Shown in pieces: positions 18,501-25,196 of a stretch of 64,000 bases of DNA (its first letter is position 1; each line of letters opens with the position of its first letter). The position numbers and the translations under genes are program-made. The stretch lies in the NCBI GenBank assembly GCA_033763455.1, contig JANRKO010000043.1:96001-160000 (forward strand), written 5' to 3'. Origin of the DNA: Polyangiaceae bacterium. GTDB taxonomy: Bacteria > Myxococcota_A > Polyangia > Polyangiales > Polyangiaceae. Under the pieces are notes generated by a model. It worked only from the letters and a program-made list of their open reading frames with translations, ran no database searches and was not told the DNA's origin.

Positions 18501-19097
18501 TTAGGGCTTCTTTGTTGCCGAAACCCGTGCATAATCTTCTGCCGCACGTTCGAGCATGATGGAATCGCGGGCGGCGCGTTCAGCTTCGGCCACAAGCTTT
18601 GCGGTGAAGAGGGTGAGCCCCCAGATGCCGTTTTCAGGGCGCACACGAAACGGGTAGCGGGTACCCCTGGCTGTTTCAACACTTGCGCGGTCAGCAGTTT
18701 GCTCAACGCGCGCTACTCCGGAAAGATCTCGCCGGAGGCGGTTCAACCAACCTTCCTGCCTAGCGTAGATCGCAAAAACGTCAGCCCCGTCTGGAGCGTT
18801 CGCGATGGATGCGTATTCGGCAGCGAGCCGGCTGCGCTCAGGTTCGGGAAAAGTAGCGAGAATGCGCGCGAGCGAGCGTTTTCTGTAGTCACGAATGCTA
18901 TAGCACGCGTGCTGCGCTGGGGTTTCGAGGTACGCAAAGAAGTCCTCTGGCCGTCCGGTGTTGACGGCCTTCACGATGCGCAAATACGCGCCAGTTGGCG
19001 TCTTGTCGCTCGGGTAAGTGAGAACTTCGACGAGTGCAACTGCGCCCACGGAGAGCACCAAAATCCCCGCCACGAGCCAGCCGATCTTGCGATTCAC
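18501..19097 (-). CDS. Hypothetical membrane-anchored/exported protein (possible NTF2-like fold)
   Basis: N-terminal TM; DKTPTGAY, ASVETARG, ENGIWGL. Confidence 0.7.
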   Translation of the reverse strand: MNRKIGWLVAGILVLSVGAVALVEVLTYPSDKTPTGAYLRIVKAVNTGRPEDFFAYLETPAQHACYSIRDYRKRSLARILATFPEPERSRLAAEYASIANAPDGADVFAIYARQEGWLNRLRRDLSGVARVEQTADRASVETARGTRYPFRVRPENGIWGLTLFTAKLVAEAERAARDSIMLERAAEDYARVSATKKP

Positions 19098-19246
19098 CGC
19101 GCAAAGCTACCACTCGCAGTGCCGGGCCACAACGCGCTGATGCGCGCCTTTTGGCGTTCGAAAGCTTCGCTTTGGGTACGCCGCGTGGGCGAGGTCAGCC
19201 TTTGCTTGCGCTTCTGCCGCGCCGGGGAGTATCAGTGGCGCCAACG

Positions 19247-20035
19247 ATGCGAAACGCCGCCAAAATCGCCGTGATTGTGCCGGCTTTCAACGAGGAGCGC
19301 CTCATCCGGCGGACGCTTTCTGGGATGCCTCCGTGGGTGGACGCGATTATTGTCGTAGACGATGCGAGTCAGGATCAGACGCGGCATCAGGTAGCCAAAG
19401 TCACTGACCGACGCGTGCAATTGGTAGTGCACGAACGCAACTTGGGCGTGGGGGCAGCAATCGCCACAGGGTACCGGCGAGCACTGCGGGAGAGCATGGA
19501 TGTGATGGTTGTCATGGCGGGCGACAACCAAATGGATCCGGATGACCTGGGGCTCGTAGTGGGGCCCATTTTGGATAAGCAAGCCGATTACGTGAAAGGT
19601 AATCGCTTCGTTCACCCCGAGGTTCGCCGTATGCCTTGGTTAAGGCGTCTGGGCGGGCGGTATTTGTCTGCGCTCACACGCCTCACCACTGGCCTTCCAG
19701 TTCATGATGCGCAGTGTGGCTACACGGCGCTTGGGCGGAGCATGTTGGAGCGTTTGCCGCTTGAAAGCCTATGGCCCAGCTTCGGGTACCCGAATGATCT
19801 TCTCGCGCTCTTGGCGGGGGCTGGGGCCAAGGTGGCGGAAGTGCCCGTGCGCCCGGTCTACGCTGAAGAACGGAGTGGGATCCGCGCTTGGCATGTTTTG
19901 ACAATCACGCGTGTGATTTTGAGCCGTTGGTTTGCAGCCCGTCGCCGCTCTTCACTTCACCGAAACGTGAACGTGCGTGCTCTCGTAATAAACCCAGTCG
20001 AAACCTGCGGTGACAGCGAGCCCCGCCAGGCGTGA
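19247..20035 (+). CDS. Glycosyltransferase family 2 (DPM-synthase-like)
   Basis: VIVPAFNEE, VVDDASQD, NLGVGAA, AGDNQMDP, GNRF, DAQCGY. Confidence 0.93.
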   Translation: MRNAAKIAVIVPAFNEERLIRRTLSGMPPWVDAIIVVDDASQDQTRHQVAKVTDRRVQLVVHERNLGVGAAIATGYRRALRESMDVMVVMAGDNQMDPDDLGLVVGPILDKQADYVKGNRFVHPEVRRMPWLRRLGGRYLSALTRLTTGLPVHDAQCGYTALGRSMLERLPLESLWPSFGYPNDLLALLAGAGAKVAEVPVRPVYAEERSGIRAWHVLTITRVILSRWFAARRRSSLHRNVNVRALVINPVETCGDSEPRQA

Positions 20036-20584
20036 AAGTTTGCTGTTGGAGACGTCGGAAGTGGTCACATCGGCGGCGCGTCCTGCATAGTGCAGGCTCC
20101 CCGTGCCGTGTTCCAATTGCTCGTCCCATGCCTCGGTGATACGCAGTTTGGTACCGGGCCACTCCTCGGCGACCTTCTCAGAAAGAAGGGCCAACTTCTC
20201 GCGCAAGCGCGGAGACATCACCAGATCGGCCCCCGTTCTTTCCTCGTCCTTGAAAACCCATGCCTCTCGATCGCCTCGCACCAAGCGCTTGAAGGATTCG
20301 GAACCGCGCTCGACTCGCTCCAGCAACGGCCCTGAGGCTTCTCTCTCGGACGTGGCTGGGAAAAATTGCCCAGGGAGCAAGCGGCGCTGCTGATCGCGAC
20401 GGGCCGAGAGGCTCGGACCATCACCCGAATCACAGCCGGCAGCACTCAGCCCAAAACTGGCCACAGACAGCGCAAGCAATCCCCATCCGCACAAAAGTTT
20501 CGGGCGTGGAATTGCTGGAAATACTCGCCAAAGAACGGGCATGGGTGCCAGACATCCTAGGCAGAGTGGGCCCAAGAGCGCCAA
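19952..20584 (-). CDS. Hedgehog N-terminal signalling-domain (Hh/Zn-peptidase fold) lipoprotein, no Hint domain
   Basis: FKDEERTGAD, WPGTKLRITEAWDE, SLHYAGRAADVTTSD, LAVTAGFDWVYYESTHVHVSVK are Hedgehog signature motifs. Hydrophobic signal ends in AAG-C. Alternative start ATG 20542. Confidence 0.95.
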   Translation of the reverse strand: MALLGPLCLGCLAPMPVLWRVFPAIPRPKLLCGWGLLALSVASFGLSAAGCDSGDGPSLSARRDQQRRLLPGQFFPATSEREASGPLLERVERGSESFKRLVRGDREAWVFKDEERTGADLVMSPRLREKLALLSEKVAEEWPGTKLRITEAWDEQLEHGTGSLHYAGRAADVTTSDVSNSKLSRLAGLAVTAGFDWVYYESTHVHVSVK

Positions 20585-20612: not shown

Positions 20613-21755
20613 TTATCTGTTGGTTTGGGTCGCGGCCCCACCTTGACTCGGCGCCTCGGGTTCGCTGCCGATGTCAACGGGGCCGAGAGATTCAGGTGCC
20701 GCGGACTCTTGCCCTTCCTTGGCTCGGTTGGCCGAAGGGGCCTCTTGCACGTCGCGAGAATCCTCAGCGCGCAGTTGGTCCCAGCCATCGGCCGTCTGTG
20801 AGTCACATGCCACCTGTGCGTGGGGATTGTACTTTAGCAAATCAAAGACAATGGGACCAAAGCGACTCTCAGCTGAGATGCGCACAGGCACGTGGCGTGG
20901 ATCGTCCGAGAACCAAATCTGAAACTTGCGACGCTCCCGTGAGGGATCGGCACCCTGACCGACACGCACAGCATCCCCGTCCACACGTACCGCGGGGCGA
21001 GGGGCCCCATCTATCACCACCACATCCATGCCTCGAAAGACCATGTTTGCGCGCAGCAAGAATCTCCCAGAAACGACGTAAAAATAGCCCTGCTCACCCA
21101 CCTTCGGACGCCAGGAACGTAAGAGCAGTATAGCGCTCTGCAAGTCGTGCGCGGCGGCGCCGTCCGGAACGTCGATTGTGTCCTCACGGACTTCTGAGGT
21201 GTGCTTCTTGTTAACGTAGTGGAAAGCGCCTGGAGAAAAATCGAGATTATAAGATACCTCGGAGCCGCTGTCAGTCACGGCGAGCAAGCTCTTCTTGGGG
21301 GTCGCACTCTCCGCATCAACCGTGGTGCTGGCTTCGGCTTTGATGCTCTTTACCAATCGCAACAAGCCGCTCGTGCGCATACTAGTGGTGAGCTTCAAGC
21401 TGCCTTCACCGCTTGGGCAGTTGCCGACGTTGAACGCCTCAAGTTGCCCGACCGTCATGCCGAGCAAATCGAACCTCGCCAAGAGACGCTCCGAGCGCGT
21501 CAGCCGCAGGGTGTTTTGGTCGAACTGGATGAGCGTACTTTTGGGGTTTTGGACTGGCGCCGTGCTCTCCCAAGTCTGGCCAGCGCACCCGCACACTAGC
21601 GCCGCAAGGCCCAACACGTTGGCAAAAAGTCCCCGACGCACGATGGCCGAAGGGTGAGGCTTTTCGGGTGATTTGGCAATCTCGGGGTCGAGCCACGGCA
21701 GCCGGTCTGGAATCACGCTCGGTCCGCCCACGTCGGAATCGCCTTGTGGGCGCAT
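20613..21755 (-). CDS. DUF3108-like lipoprotein
   Basis: Lipobox-like LVCGC; HDLQSAILLLRSW; IWFSDDPRHVPVRISAESRFG. Start uncertain (track ORF extends to 21887). Confidence 0.75.
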   Translation of the reverse strand: MRPQGDSDVGGPSVIPDRLPWLDPEIAKSPEKPHPSAIVRRGLFANVLGLAALVCGCAGQTWESTAPVQNPKSTLIQFDQNTLRLTRSERLLARFDLLGMTVGQLEAFNVGNCPSGEGSLKLTTSMRTSGLLRLVKSIKAEASTTVDAESATPKKSLLAVTDSGSEVSYNLDFSPGAFHYVNKKHTSEVREDTIDVPDGAAAHDLQSAILLLRSWRPKVGEQGYFYVVSGRFLLRANMVFRGMDVVVIDGAPRPAVRVDGDAVRVGQGADPSRERRKFQIWFSDDPRHVPVRISAESRFGPIVFDLLKYNPHAQVACDSQTADGWDQLRAEDSRDVQEAPSANRAKEGQESAAPESLGPVDIGSEPEAPSQGGAATQTNR

Positions 21756-21774
21756 AAGAGCTACACTGCAATTT

Positions 21775-21948
21775 GTGCTCGCTAAGCTGTTGGCCGGGGC
21801 TTTCGGCCTCATTTTCGTTGGCAAGATGTTTTTCAAGCCACAGCTGAAAGCCGTGGGGCGCTGGTTAGAGGCTGCTGTAAACGCCATGTTGATCGCGATC
21901 GCCCTCGTTTGGACGGTTCAACTGTTGCTCTACTTTTTGCGCAGCTAA
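21775..21948 (+). CDS. Small (57 aa) two-helix membrane protein
   Basis: Two hydrophobic segments; GTG 21775 lies 7 nt after a TACACT -10-like box; fills an otherwise intergenic gap. Confidence 0.55.
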   Translation: MLAKLLAGAFGLIFVGKMFFKPQLKAVGRWLEAAVNAMLIAIALVWTVQLLLYFLRS

Positions 21949-22043
21949 ATTCCCCCCTAGGGCTCGCTCGGCGCCCGTTCACGGGGTTTTCTCGCCTTGG
22001 GTAATGCGGCGTGCTGGCCGTCCGTAAGGATCTTGAGAGATCC

Positions 22044-25000
22044 ATGGACGACCGCGGGAAATCCAAGAGCACGGGTCAGCCCGGCGAAGTCCCCAAGCTG
22101 AGTCGTGTGGAACCGCCAGCGCCCAAGACCAATCTTGGTCTGGGTCTGCCCCCCAAACTCGCCGCCGCATCCCTTTCGGGAGCCAAGGCGACGCCGACTT
22201 CGGCAGCTGGTGCCCCCCCGAAGCTGAGTGACTTGCTCAAGGGAAGTCCAAAGCCAGGTTCACCGCAGATGCAGAAGGCGAGTCGGGTCACCAGGCCTGT
22301 CGCTGAGCCGAAGCCAGTCGCGGAGGCGCCTAAGGTTACGGTCGGGCAAGCGAAGGTAATCGCGGAGGCGCCTAAGGTTGTGGTTGAAGCGCCTAAGAGA
22401 CATACTCAGGCTAACGCCTCACGCCCAGCCGCTTCCGTGTTTGGCAAACCGATCCCACCGCGTGCGCACTCCGTGCCCCCTAGGCCACAGACAGAGCCAG
22501 CCGTCCTCGCAGTGGGAAGCGATGACGCCATCTTGGTGGCGTTAAAAGCAGCTCTGGCACGTCACGGCGTGTTTGTCGAATCGGCCGAAGCGGGATCGGT
22601 GGTGGAAACGGTGATTGCTGCCGCACCTGACCTCATCCTGTTGCTTGGGGATGCCGCCAAAGACTGCGGGCGTGCAACGCTAGAGAAGCTCAGTGCTTCC
22701 CCGCAGAGTTCGGTCGTACCAGTGGCGATCATGGACGACAACATGGCGCTGGACGCCAGGCTGCAGGCGTTCCGTTACGGGGTTACGGCGGTAATACCCA
22801 GATCTGCAAGCATTGACGCGATCGCCGAGAAAGTTGCGCGCTTAGCCAAGGAGATCCCTTACCGCGGGACGGATAGCCCCGAGATGGTTGGTGAATCCAC
22901 GCTTGAAGAGTTCGTTGCTGCCCTGAGCTCGGAGCTCCGGACAGGGATCTTGAGCGTCGGCGGAGCGGAGACGCCCCCCGACCAGGCGATCCGTTTGGTA
23001 CTTGGCGGCGGTAAGCTTCTTGCGGAGTTTGTGGACGATTTTGTGAAGCGCGTTCGCACGCATGTGGTCTCGGCCGAGCCGCTTACGTACGAGTTCGACG
23101 AACGCGCTGGGGGAACGCTCGGACTGCTTGGGAGCGATTCGAAGGCTAAGCTGCCCGTGAGTGTCAAAGGCCTACGTCTGGCTTTGGCCGATAACGATGC
23201 GGCCCGCGCAGACACGGTGGCGCAGGAGTTGCGAAGCCACGGTGCGCAAGTTTTCGTTATCGATCTTTCTCCCAGCGAAGCGAGGCTTTCCAAGCTCAGG
23301 CAGCTAGATCCAGCGGTGCTTCTGATCGGAGAAAACCATCTAACGGGTGAAGGCCATGAGCTTGTCCGACGTATGCGCCGGGACGCGAGGTTGCGCTGGG
23401 CGTCATTGTTGGTGCTGCGTTGGGACGAGCTATTTGCCGATCCCCATGAAATGCCCATCGTAGAGAGGCTTTCGAGTTCCCTCGCGACGCTGGTGGAGCC
23501 GGAGCGGTCCTTGCTTGAACGTGCCAACAGCGGGTTGGGTTTTGATACGCGGTTGGAGACCACTGGCCCCGCTCGCTTGTTGCGTGGGCTGAAGGGTTGC
23601 TCGCAACTCCTGCGGCTAAATATTAACAATCCCCGTATCAACGTGGCGTTGGATGTTGCCGAGGGGCTCATCGTTGGAGCAAGCGCCGTCGTCATGAGTC
23701 CGGTTCCAGCTCAGCTTTCGGGGCCATTAGCCCTGGCCGCGTACTTAGTGCTGGGCTCGGGTCGGGTGCACGTAGAGCGAGCTGCTGCCGCCGCCGACGC
23801 AAACATCATGGCCACCATTGATGTGGCGTTGGACTTGGCGGAGGCGGAAACTCCGCCAATCTCGCCTTCGATTCCGGCGCCCGCGCGAGCCGTCGAACCG
23901 GTTGCAACCCCTTCGGTGCCCCCTCTGGGGAAGCTGCCGGTATTCGACGTCCCCGATCCGCCGCCCATGCCGGTATCTATGGCCGCGCCCGTGCGCGAAC
24001 GTCCACCACCGCCGAGTGCGCAGGCACAGGTTCCTTCCGTCATCGTGGCGAGCGCGGTCAACGTCGATCCTTCCCTCGACCAGGAATTTCGGCGCGAGAG
24101 TCCTGGTCGCAATCAGCGGAAACCGGAGGCGCGCATTGGCTGGCAAATGGGGGTTCTCTGGTCAGTTTTGGGGGTGGTGCAGTTAGCCTTGGCCGCGGGG
24201 GTCGTATTGGCAGTGGTGCGAGTAATGCGCGGTTCATCGCCTGCCGCCGCCGCGAGCGTCGCTGTCGTCGAAAAGGCCACCGTAGGTGCTGCTGTGCAAC
24301 CCCCGAAGGGTCCCGAGCCCACCGAAGTACAACCACAGCCCTCCGTCGCGTCGGCTGCGCTTGGGCAACCCCCGTCAAAGCAAGATCCCGAACCTCCTCC
24401 GCCCGCGCAAGTGGCGGAAGCGAAGTCGGAGCTCATGTTCCCAAGGGCCGTACAGGCTCCCACCTGCGAGTTTTTGCTTGAGCACGCCGAGGCGCCACGA
24501 GGCGGCTTTTCTAAGGATTCCAGTGTCGCGTTGGGTGAGGGGCACAAGGCGCTCGTGAAGGGCAATGTCGACGCGGCGCAGACGGCGTTCTGCCGGGCAG
24601 CCATGTTGGACGCCGCCAACCCCAGAGTGCAGCTTGCTCTTGCACAGCTGCTGATTCTGCGCGGCGACGGAACGCAAGGTGAGGCAGTAGCGAGTCGAGC
24701 GTTGGCGCTGCACGGCGAAACGGCCCGCGCCAAGGGGCTCCTCGGAGACGCTCTTATAATCCGCGGAGATCTTGATGGCGCACGCGCTGCCTGGTTGGAT
24801 GCTGCCGGCCTGACAGCAAGTGACGCGGCGGCCATTCAGAAGCTTACGGAGCGAGCGCTGTGGGAAGGGGAGGCATCCGTGCGCAACAAGGACTACGCTC
24901 GCTCGGAGCGCTTTTTCTGGCGTATGTTGGCCTTTTTTCGCGACGATCCAGATGCCAATCTTGGCATGGCCCGAACCTACCTCTACCGCGGCGACCTAGA

Positions 25001-25196
25001 GCGAGCCCTCAGCTGGGCACGGCGCAGCGTGCGGCTGAGCCCCGATGCCCCACGCGCCCGAGTTGTGCTCGGTGACGTACTTTTGCGTTCGGGCGACGCA
25101 AAAGCTGCAATCTTGGAGTGGCAAGCGGCACAAAGGATAGACCCCAAGAGCCTCGAAGCGAAGGCTCGCTTGGAGTCCGCAAACAAACTGAAGTAA
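22044..25196 (+). CDS. Large bitopic protein: Pro/Lys-rich N-terminus, two degenerate receiver domains, DUF4388-like region, TM, periplasmic TPRs
   Basis: REC-like VLAVGSDD..PDLILL and LALADND..PAVLLI; TM WSVLGVVQLALAAGVVLAVV; C-terminal TPR-like helices. Confidence 0.75.
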   Translation: MDDRGKSKSTGQPGEVPKLSRVEPPAPKTNLGLGLPPKLAAASLSGAKATPTSAAGAPPKLSDLLKGSPKPGSPQMQKASRVTRPVAEPKPVAEAPKVTVGQAKVIAEAPKVVVEAPKRHTQANASRPAASVFGKPIPPRAHSVPPRPQTEPAVLAVGSDDAILVALKAALARHGVFVESAEAGSVVETVIAAAPDLILLLGDAAKDCGRATLEKLSASPQSSVVPVAIMDDNMALDARLQAFRYGVTAVIPRSASIDAIAEKVARLAKEIPYRGTDSPEMVGESTLEEFVAALSSELRTGILSVGGAETPPDQAIRLVLGGGKLLAEFVDDFVKRVRTHVVSAEPLTYEFDERAGGTLGLLGSDSKAKLPVSVKGLRLALADNDAARADTVAQELRSHGAQVFVIDLSPSEARLSKLRQLDPAVLLIGENHLTGEGHELVRRMRRDARLRWASLLVLRWDELFADPHEMPIVERLSSSLATLVEPERSLLERANSGLGFDTRLETTGPARLLRGLKGCSQLLRLNINNPRINVALDVAEGLIVGASAVVMSPVPAQLSGPLALAAYLVLGSGRVHVERAAAAADANIMATIDVALDLAEAETPPISPSIPAPARAVEPVATPSVPPLGKLPVFDVPDPPPMPVSMAAPVRERPPPPSAQAQVPSVIVASAVNVDPSLDQEFRRESPGRNQRKPEARIGWQMGVLWSVLGVVQLALAAGVVLAVVRVMRGSSPAAAASVAVVEKATVGAAVQPPKGPEPTEVQPQPSVASAALGQPPSKQDPEPPPPAQVAEAKSELMFPRAVQAPTCEFLLEHAEAPRGGFSKDSSVALGEGHKALVKGNVDAAQTAFCRAAMLDAANPRVQLALAQLLILRGDGTQGEAVASRALALHGETARAKGLLGDALIIRGDLDGARAAWLDAAGLTASDAAAIQKLTERALWEGEASVRNKDYARSERFFWRMLAFFRDDPDANLGMARTYLYRGDLERALSWARRSVRLSPDAPRARVVLGDVLLRSGDAKAAILEWQAAQRIDPKSLEAKARLESANKLK

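Follow-up and report, generated by a model that had tools for sequence, protein, structure and literature searches.

The stretch of DNA analysed here (hereafter the window) comprises 64,000 nucleotides (nt) of contig JANRKO010000043.1 (assembly GCA_033763455.1, Polyangiaceae bacterium), positions 96,001 to 160,000 of the forward strand. It encodes on its minus strand a protein of 196 amino acids (aa) in which a lipoprotein-type signal precedes a domain homologous to the N-terminal domain of animal Hedgehog proteins (Hh-N). Such domains are known from bacteria as BacHh. The 196-aa window protein is identical to database entry P0001, and a longer alternative open reading frame (ORF) of the same gene, with a TTG start, reaches 20584. 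The gene and its parts are listed below.

19952..20542, minus strand: coding sequence of the lipoprotein-type Hh-N protein (BacHh), with its ATG at 20542 and its stop codon at 19952-19954, 196 aa, from the ORF list and the sequence.
20435..20542, minus strand: signal peptide, residues 1-36, with an n-region containing R6, R13 and K15 and an uncharged h-region, L16-G36.
20432..20443, minus strand: lipobox A34-A35-G36-C37, read directly from the sequence; the codon of Cys37, the predicted lipidated +1 residue, is 20432-20434.
20393..20431, minus strand: tether, residues 38-50 (DSGDGPSLSARRD), variable in length across the family and without hhalign alignment to animal Hedgehog.
19955..20392, minus strand: Hedgehog-N / M15A-like (LAS) zinc-peptidase domain, residues 51-196, from hhalign, Foldseek and AlphaFold (predicted local distance difference test, pLDDT, 89-98).
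19967..20245, minus strand: metal and catalytic residues within the domain, mapped by the hhalign alignment onto the mouse Shh residues of PMC6027127 and PMC8052667.

That the protein is a Hedgehog-N homolog, as an initial annotation of this DNA had proposed, was borne out by profile, alignment and structure comparisons. The Pfam family HH_signal (PF01085; cut-off 22.1 bits) matched along positions 5-161 of its 161-position profile with a score of 157.5 bits (E 3e-46), and 25 distinct PDB sequences from Sonic, Desert, Indian and fly Hedgehog matched at E 1.2e-42 to 1.8e-34. When a profile of 69 bacterial homologs (alignment A1) was compared by hhalign with a profile of 23 animal Hedgehogs, residues 51-196 of P0001 were aligned to residues 41-193 of P0158, the SHH-type representative, with probability 100 and 50% identity over 151 columns. 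An AlphaFold model of P0001, built on 69 homologs, had a pLDDT of 89-98 from residue 51 on and of 65-69 upstream of it. Foldseek superposed this model on at least 30 solved Hh-N chains of ShhN, DhhN and IhhN with a root mean square deviation (rmsd) of 0.9-1.1 Å, that is around 1 Å, over 146 columns, at 49-53% identity and with a target-normalised template modelling (TM) score of 0.85-0.94. The next structural matches were the LAS peptidases LdcB, MepA, Ply500 and LysECD7 (Foldseek E 0.01-0.25), and Peptidase_M15_3 gave a weak match to P0001 that stayed below the family cut-off (E 4.4e-4).

The active site is kept as well. Mapped onto mouse Shh (PMC6027127, PMC8052667), the zinc ligands H151, D158 and H192 align to H141, D148 and H183, the catalytic E187 to E177, and the stacking histidines H145 and H190 to H135 and H181. 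Five of the six calcium-site residues are retained, namely E100, E101, D106, E137 and D140 (mouse E90, E91, D96, E127 and D130), and the sixth is Q142 in place of D132. Ten of these positions (E100, E101, D106, D140, H145, H151, D158, E187, H190 and H192) are invariant in the 69 sequences of A1, and E137 is conserved in at least 90% of them. With animal ShhN, DhhN and IhhN (PDB 3ho5, 3n1g, 1vhh and 7e2i) the protein shares its fold, 49-53% identity, the zinc site and five of the six calcium-site residues. Its H-x(6)-D ... H zinc site and central sheet recur in the LAS/M15 peptidases (the VanY-like LdcB, MepA and Ply500), to which its identity is only 12-16%, with TM scores of 0.3-0.5; according to PMC8052667 these peptidases lack the calcium site of Hh and BacHh. 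The protein ends at residue 196 (SVK), together with the last strand of the domain (HVHVSVK), and no Hint match was found in the 196 aa by a Pfam scan.

BacHh proteins have been predicted to be peptidoglycan peptidases (PMC8052667), and their fusion partners are in line with this. A Pfam scan of 138 family representatives (10 longer than 900 aa were left out for size) found bacterial Hh-N joined to Phage_lysozyme, Amidase_2, Amidase_3, YkuD_2, VanY, PG_binding_1, Pesticin, WXG100 and a YLATT module with three transmembrane segments. Because Hh-N has these partners in other bacteria, we propose peptidoglycan cleavage as its role, and peptidoglycan peptide bonds would be the most likely substrate of the window protein. 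Fusions to L,D-transpeptidase, Pesticin, lysozyme, amidase and other modules occur in P0125, P0133, P0135, P0137, P0147, P0149, P0165, P0181 and P0240.

Upstream of the domain, three basic n-region residues are followed by the 21 uncharged residues L16-G36, within which AlphaFold places a helix (residues 21-35, pLDDT ~65-67), and the predicted mature N-terminus of P0001 is CDSGDGPSLSARRDQQRRLLPGQFFP. A homolog search limited to proteins of 115-368 aa returned 461 proteins (E <= 1e-5), and the top 120 of these (144-251 aa; those with names come from Polyangiaceae metagenome-assembled genomes, MAGs) were analysed with strict and permissive sequence rules that we defined ourselves for a Cys with G, A or S at -1 after an uncharged hydrophobic stretch. 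Such a Cys was present in 113 of the 120 homologs. The strict lipobox rule was satisfied in 102 of the 113, the remaining 11 having unusual residues at -2 or -3; an earlier, stricter rule had given 101/120. Among the seven homologs without such a Cys, four are gene calls that start 9-24 residues from the domain and three are atypical. Before P62 the Cys is the sole residue kept throughout the homologs, while the residues that flank it vary; its invariance in A1 is a consequence of how the rows of that alignment were selected. The initial annotation had named conservation of the Cys position as a check on its reading, and at 113/120 the Cys is indeed retained at the end of the signal peptide.

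In bacteria, the lipoprotein Cys is acylated by Lgt, Lsp and Lnt, and Cys1 of SHH is N-palmitoylated by HHAT. The genome to which the window belongs has two matches to Lgt over the curated cut-off and one strong match to LspA, also over the cut-off. A lipoprotein-type signal ending AAG|C, as first proposed, therefore agrees with the sequence itself, with the conservation of the Cys among homologs and with the processing enzymes encoded. Because Hh-N homology, a conserved Cys and Lgt/LspA coincide, a lipid-anchored, membrane- or vesicle-borne Hh-N is likely. The precursor would be exported via Sec, Lgt would place a diacylglycerol on Cys37, and LspA would cleave between G36 and C37; where Lnt is present, the new alpha-amine would also be acylated. 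The lipidated Cys would then sit on the membrane, with a flexible tether of ~13 residues carrying the 146-aa Zn2+/Ca2+ LAS-type domain, which could act in the periplasm, on the cell surface or on vesicles. S-diacylglyceryl modification and cleavage by signal peptidase II are well grounded as predictions from the sequence, and N-acylation of Cys37, the step chemically nearest to the N-palmitate of Hedgehog, is only likely.

The lipobox is not a textbook one. Set against [LVI][ASTVI][GAS]C, the A-A-G-C of P0001 fits at -1 and -2 and has Ala at -3, so that it fits our permissive rule; a PROSITE-type lipoprotein rule, whose pattern AAGC fits, expects the Cys within residues 15-35. The protein might then be no lipoprotein at all: signal peptidase I might cleave its signal, or the signal might stay on as an anchor, and the Cys would serve another purpose. 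The Ala at -3, the Cys at precursor residue 37 and the 11 of 113 homologs that are off-rule at -2 or -3 would fit such a protein. It is hard to reconcile, however, with a Cys that is the only residue before P62 to be kept throughout while its flanks vary, with the restriction of -1 to G, A or S across all 113 homologs, and with a genome that encodes Lgt and LspA, and we consider it very improbable.

With regard to the third enzyme, 18 of 21 relatives have an Lnt match that passes the cut-off; those lacking one are the window's genome and two of the same genus. At the C6 locus of the window's genome there is only a 322-aa CN_hydrolase ORF, with an upstream ORF that lacks both a Pfam match and any hydrophobic 19-mer, and no LNT_N domain was found in this assembly, which is 93.7% complete. 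Full-length Lnt likewise went undetected at G000:C6:530788-531309 in this genome and in two of three same-genus genomes (G302 and G303). Either the missing Lnt reflects an assembly gap, or the genus has a divergent or absent N-acyltransferase.

We then considered the placement of the Cys relative to Hedgehog. The initial annotation had set the mature bacterial N-terminus in exact register with that of SHH; the SHH sequence that it used is confirmed by P0158, and the same SHH residues are seen in PDB chain 7e2i_G. The ungapped identities between P0001 and P0158 fall at positions 1, 4, 6, 19, 23, 24 and 26 (7/26), precisely those listed. In P0001 the spacing from the Cys to the conserved Pro (P62) is 25 residues, equal to SHH, and the hhalign alignment starts at mature residue 15 in both P0001 and P0158, so that for P0001 alone the register equals that of SHH. 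Since positions 19-26 lie inside the aligned domain, the identities at L19, Q23, F24 and P26 are ordinary domain homology. The idea that the tether resembles the N-terminal peptide of Hedgehog was rejected: there are 2 identities to SHH among the 13 positions 2-14, a number reached in 36% of 100000 shuffles (p 0.36), and mature residues 1-14 are left unaligned by hhalign. In the pairwise HMMER and Pfam alignments, SHH Cys24, or profile position 1, pairs with the Ser that lies two residues beyond the bacterial Cys.

The register is also not a property of the family. Among the 113 homologs with the Cys, the spacing from Cys to Pro is 22 in 3, 23 in 10, 24 in 3, 25 in 27, 26 in 19, 27 in 23, 28 in 21, 29 in 4 and 31, 32 and 36 in one each. 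All five closest relatives of P0001 (P0002-P0006, 64-72% identical) have 27, and in the related representative P0128 the lipobox lies ~57 residues upstream of the domain. As a conserved feature, the exact register thus did not survive the comparison, since a spacing that varies from 22 to 36, with 25 in only 27/113, is what the initial annotation had said would make it a coincidence. Given the variable spacing, the 27 of the closest relatives and the chance-level identity in the linker, we regard the register as coincidental, and the exact match with SHH most likely arose because tether lengths vary and that of P0001 happens to be equal. A weaker resemblance is left: in animal Hedgehogs, too, a Cys comes after the signal peptide and stands ~25 residues before the conserved Pro (25 in 17/23, range 22-28), so that in both groups a Cys at the signal-peptide cleavage site lies ~22-28 residues before the same Pro. 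The common layout of signal peptide, Cys, tether and Hh-N is best read as parallel solutions to membrane anchoring.

Within the tether, a family motif P-x-L-S is followed by basic residues, with L45 conserved in at least 90% of A1, and the pLDDT is 65-69. P[SGTA]L[SAT], a loose version of the motif, is seen in 59/120 short bacterial forms and in 6/69 non-lipoprotein bacterial rows. The mature N-terminus of Nematostella vectensis Hedgehog (P0192, A7RY14), CSSRPSLSRRGRRP, resembles this PSLS-plus-basic motif. We take the likeness of its PSLSRR to the bacterial tether as chance, as only 1 of 120 animal sequences has the pattern.

HHAT substrates need basic residues near the Cys. The bacterial N-terminus is acidic, CDSGDG, in contrast to CGPGRG in Hedgehog, and its lipid would be a thioether-linked diacylglycerol added through Lgt and LspA (and Lnt where present), unlike the N-palmitate added by HHAT. 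The Hint autoprocessing domain of animal Hedgehog, with its G|CF site, is absent from the bacterial protein, which makes addition of cholesterol impossible. Without a Hint domain and without the CGPGRG peptide, the window protein is not Hedgehog proper.

Taken together, we put at about 70% the probability that the gene product is a lipoprotein-anchored, BacHh-type Zn/Ca metallopeptidase whose Cys matches the spacing of SHH by coincidence and whose anchoring arose in parallel. Several observations weigh against this. The lipobox has Ala at -3 and not the usual Leu, Val or Ile, Cys37 lies slightly beyond the range of the PROSITE-type rule, and the lipoprotein call on P0001 rests on sequence rules of our own making. 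Lnt was not confirmed in the genome, in a 93.7% complete assembly, the best match to TIGR00546 reaching 113.8 bits against a required 132.9 and covering the C-terminal half only. Animal and bacterial spacings centre on nearly the same value, which pure chance does not predict, and in the homolog P0124 hmmscan aligned Cys19, the lipobox residue, with position 1 of HH_signal. Finally, the BacHh papers examined (PMC6027127 and PMC8052667) demonstrate enzymatic activity for none of these proteins.

The similar spacings lead to the question of common descent. Animal Hedgehog could have come from a lipoprotein BacHh by gene transfer, its N-terminal Cys being the old lipobox Cys, later used by HHAT. 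The layout is the same in both groups, with a signal peptide, a Cys, a tether of similar length and an Hh-N domain of the same extent; the spacings overlap (22-28 with a mode of 25 in animals, 22-36 with modes of 25-28 in bacteria), and the P0124 Cys aligned to HH_signal position 1 would be expected of a shared site. On the other hand, the first 14 mature residues cannot be aligned and their identity is at chance, and a Cys at +1 can arise independently because both signal peptidases need small residues at -1 and -3.

For the trees, rows were grouped as animal or eukaryote-like (Hint, LDLa, or HH_signal above 205 bits), short bacterial with a lipobox, and other bacterial ('main'); P0174, which resembles a SUMO fusion, and 19 proteins whose domain is incomplete were left out. 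A quick tree of 166 rows, built with posterior mean site frequencies (PMSF), had an open backbone, with 87 of 160 inner branches open. Sequence identity speaks against descent from the lipoproteins: on average, animal rows share 50.5% identity with lipoprotein rows and 50.7% with the other bacterial rows, and the best match is a non-lipoprotein form for 39 of the 43 animal rows, that group being about twice as large.

The root was supplied by ten distant homologs of Kiritimatiellia, Lentisphaerae and Verrucomicrobiota, which are 30-37% identical and were picked from 35 distant loci for their long matches. In a 120-taxon LG+G4 tree, for which redundant vertebrate rows were removed and 34 of the 57 'main' rows drawn at random, the lipoprotein forms make up a basal grade and animal Hedgehog is nested with the non-lipoprotein forms. 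The log-likelihood (lnL) of this free tree was -19344.7; a constrained search, incomplete and at best -19359.7, was not used. A random subset of 56 taxa agrees, with support (SH-like approximate likelihood ratio test, SH-aLRT / ultrafast bootstrap, UFBoot) of 91.9/75 for the split of Hedgehog with 'main', of 98.8/100 for Hedgehog alone and with weakly supported basal branches. Because the lipoprotein forms are a basal grade in the outgroup-rooted trees, lipoprotein anchoring could be the ancestral state for the clade in which Hedgehog lies, which is in favour of common descent; the best trees, however, join Hedgehog itself to the non-lipoprotein bacterial forms.

An approximately unbiased (AU) test on the 56-taxon set rejects none of three trees: the free tree (lnL -9915.6, p-AU 0.705), one with Hedgehog and lipoproteins held together (delta lnL 10.0, p-AU 0.175) and one with lipoproteins and 'main' held together (delta lnL 5.95, p-AU 0.402). 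An AU test without an outgroup, in which the tree with Hedgehog and lipoproteins held together had p 0.798 and outscored the quick free tree by 48 lnL, was given no weight because all it tests is whether a single branch separates the remaining bacterial rows from the rest. The earliest branches of the Hedgehog clade are eukaryote-like proteins in which the signal peptide leads directly into the domain and a Cys peptide is missing (P0187, P0253, P0175 and P0179; support weak, 82-83), and which therefore speak against an inherited Cys; LDLa repeats are found in P0175, P0179 and P0187 and Hint modules in P0187 and P0253.

The initial annotation had suggested that the lipid anchor of Hedgehog was ancestral to, or mimicked by, bacterial lipoprotein processing. 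A lipid-anchored bacterial Hh-N is supported; an ancestral one finds no support in the best trees (91.9/75) and is not rejected by the AU test (p-AU 0.175). Inheritance of the Hedgehog Cys from a lipobox is thus possible but unsupported, unproven and disfavoured by the best trees, and the data lean against it. It is accordingly improbable, in our judgement, that the palmitoylated Cys of Hedgehog is an exapted lipobox Cys of a stand-alone BacHh that came to be cut by the eukaryotic signal peptidase and captured by HHAT. Were this true, lipid anchoring of Hh-N would be older than animals, and in any case the origin of the N-terminal lipid site of Hedgehog becomes a testable question.

The window protein has Asp at +2 and Pro at +7. 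Under the E. coli rule, +2 Asp means retention in the inner membrane, and in Myxococcus xanthus +2 Lys means inner-membrane retention and +7 Ala is a signal for the extracellular matrix (ECM) (PMC3222651). The window protein has the lipobox, flexible tether and globular domain of Gram-negative lipoproteins with disordered N-terminal linkers and of M. xanthus lipoproteins, but its +2 Asp and +7 Pro match neither M. xanthus sorting signal (PMC3222651); the rule for Polyangia may differ. Lys at +2 occurs in 1/101 homologs and Ala at +7 in 13/113.

One could picture the lipoprotein as a weapon, and not as a housekeeping enzyme for the cell's own wall: a peptidoglycan-cleaving effector delivered on outer-membrane vesicles or from cell to cell in predation or competition. 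Toxin-like proteins do end in the same domain, among them P0147 with a WXG100 N-terminus and the Pesticin fusion P0133, and proteins of more than 1000 aa carry Hh-N at their extreme C-terminus in the manner of polymorphic toxins (P0139, P0142, P0143 and P0221). The patchy distribution, 15/301 genomes of a phylum sample with the window's own counted and 2/23 other genomes of the same family, would suit such an effector, as would the gene for a PLD-like hydrolase that adjoins the Hh-N gene in 3/9 Polyangia loci, and +2 Lys in only 1/101 homologs fits outer-membrane sorting by the M. xanthus rule (PMC3222651). However, no small neighbour is conserved as an immunity gene in nine loci and the window, +2 Asp would retain the protein in the inner membrane by the E. 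coli rule, and the +7 Ala ECM signal is found in 13/113 homologs only, with Pro in the window protein. We therefore regard a weapon as rather unlikely, though a serious competitor to the peptidase reading given above.

BacHh proteins of Rhizobium, Bradyrhizobium and Mesorhizobium have been published (Roelink 2018, PMC6027127; Jaegers & Roelink 2021, PMC8052667). The window protein shares with them the Zn/Ca Hh-N domain ~50% identical to Shh, the catalytic residues and the C-terminal boundary, as well as a patchy accessory distribution and a predicted role as a peptidoglycan peptidase (PMC6027127, PMC8052667). [quoted passage not shown] The words 'lipoprotein' and 'lipobox' are absent from PMC6027127 and PMC8052667, and 'myxo' from PMC8052667. 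In the searchable literature, whose coverage leaves subscription-only papers outside, queries for bacterial hedgehog with lipoprotein and for hedgehog with lipobox or myxobacteria yielded no description of a lipoprotein-type BacHh. BacHh peptidases as such are already known; for the stand-alone, predicted lipoprotein-anchored form of Polyangia we found no paper. The large clade of short stand-alone proteins to which it belongs (the 461 of the length-limited search) covers the whole Hh-N fold at ~50% identity to Shh. It offers a tractable bacterial model of a predicted lipid-tethered Hh-N with an intact catalytic site, which could help to settle the peptidase activity and the substrate of Hh-N.

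The neighbouring genes, in the window and in related Polyangia loci, are as follows.

19034-20035, plus strand: ORF of a family-2 glycosyltransferase (GT2), convergent with the Hh-N gene and overlapping its last 84 nt (19952-20035) as listed.
20613..21887, minus strand: DUF3108 protein, 424 aa (Pfam DUF3108, E 2.1e-17), upstream of the Hh-N gene with a gap of 70 nt.
22011-25196, plus strand: protein of 1061 aa, rich in Ala and Pro in its N-terminal half and repeat-like in its C-terminal part, syntenic and ~56% identical in the three closest loci.
L005:4205-4927, L007:2336-3031 and L009:674-1360, minus strand in locus orientation: phospholipase D (PLD)-like protein (PLDc_2) of ~230 aa, a divergent neighbour of the Hh-N gene.

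A conserved gene neighbourhood was considered and rejected, as the neighbours (DUF3108, GT2 and others) are common only to the three closest of nine Polyangia loci. The DUF3108 gene in particular adjoins the Hh-N gene in just these three (L002, L003 and L010) and is not a conserved partner, and no conserved candidate immunity gene was found among the nine loci and the window. The DUF3108 and Hh-N genes may be co-transcribed, and NCBIfam had no matching family for either protein. A Cys-containing hydrophobic stretch of the DUF3108 protein, LAALVCGCAGQ, may be a second lipoprotein signal. The true start of the GT2 gene is probably further downstream, because residues 1-70, the 5' third, are unmatched in the related loci. 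The PLD-like neighbour is present in three of the six more distant Polyangia loci.

Further afield, MAGs of Kiritimatiellia, Lentisphaerae and Verrucomicrobiota (L011-L045) contain a more distant Hh-N-like family, 28-46% identical, which keeps GFDWVYYE and the C-terminal H-x-H and in which WWE replaces FKDEE at the calcium site.

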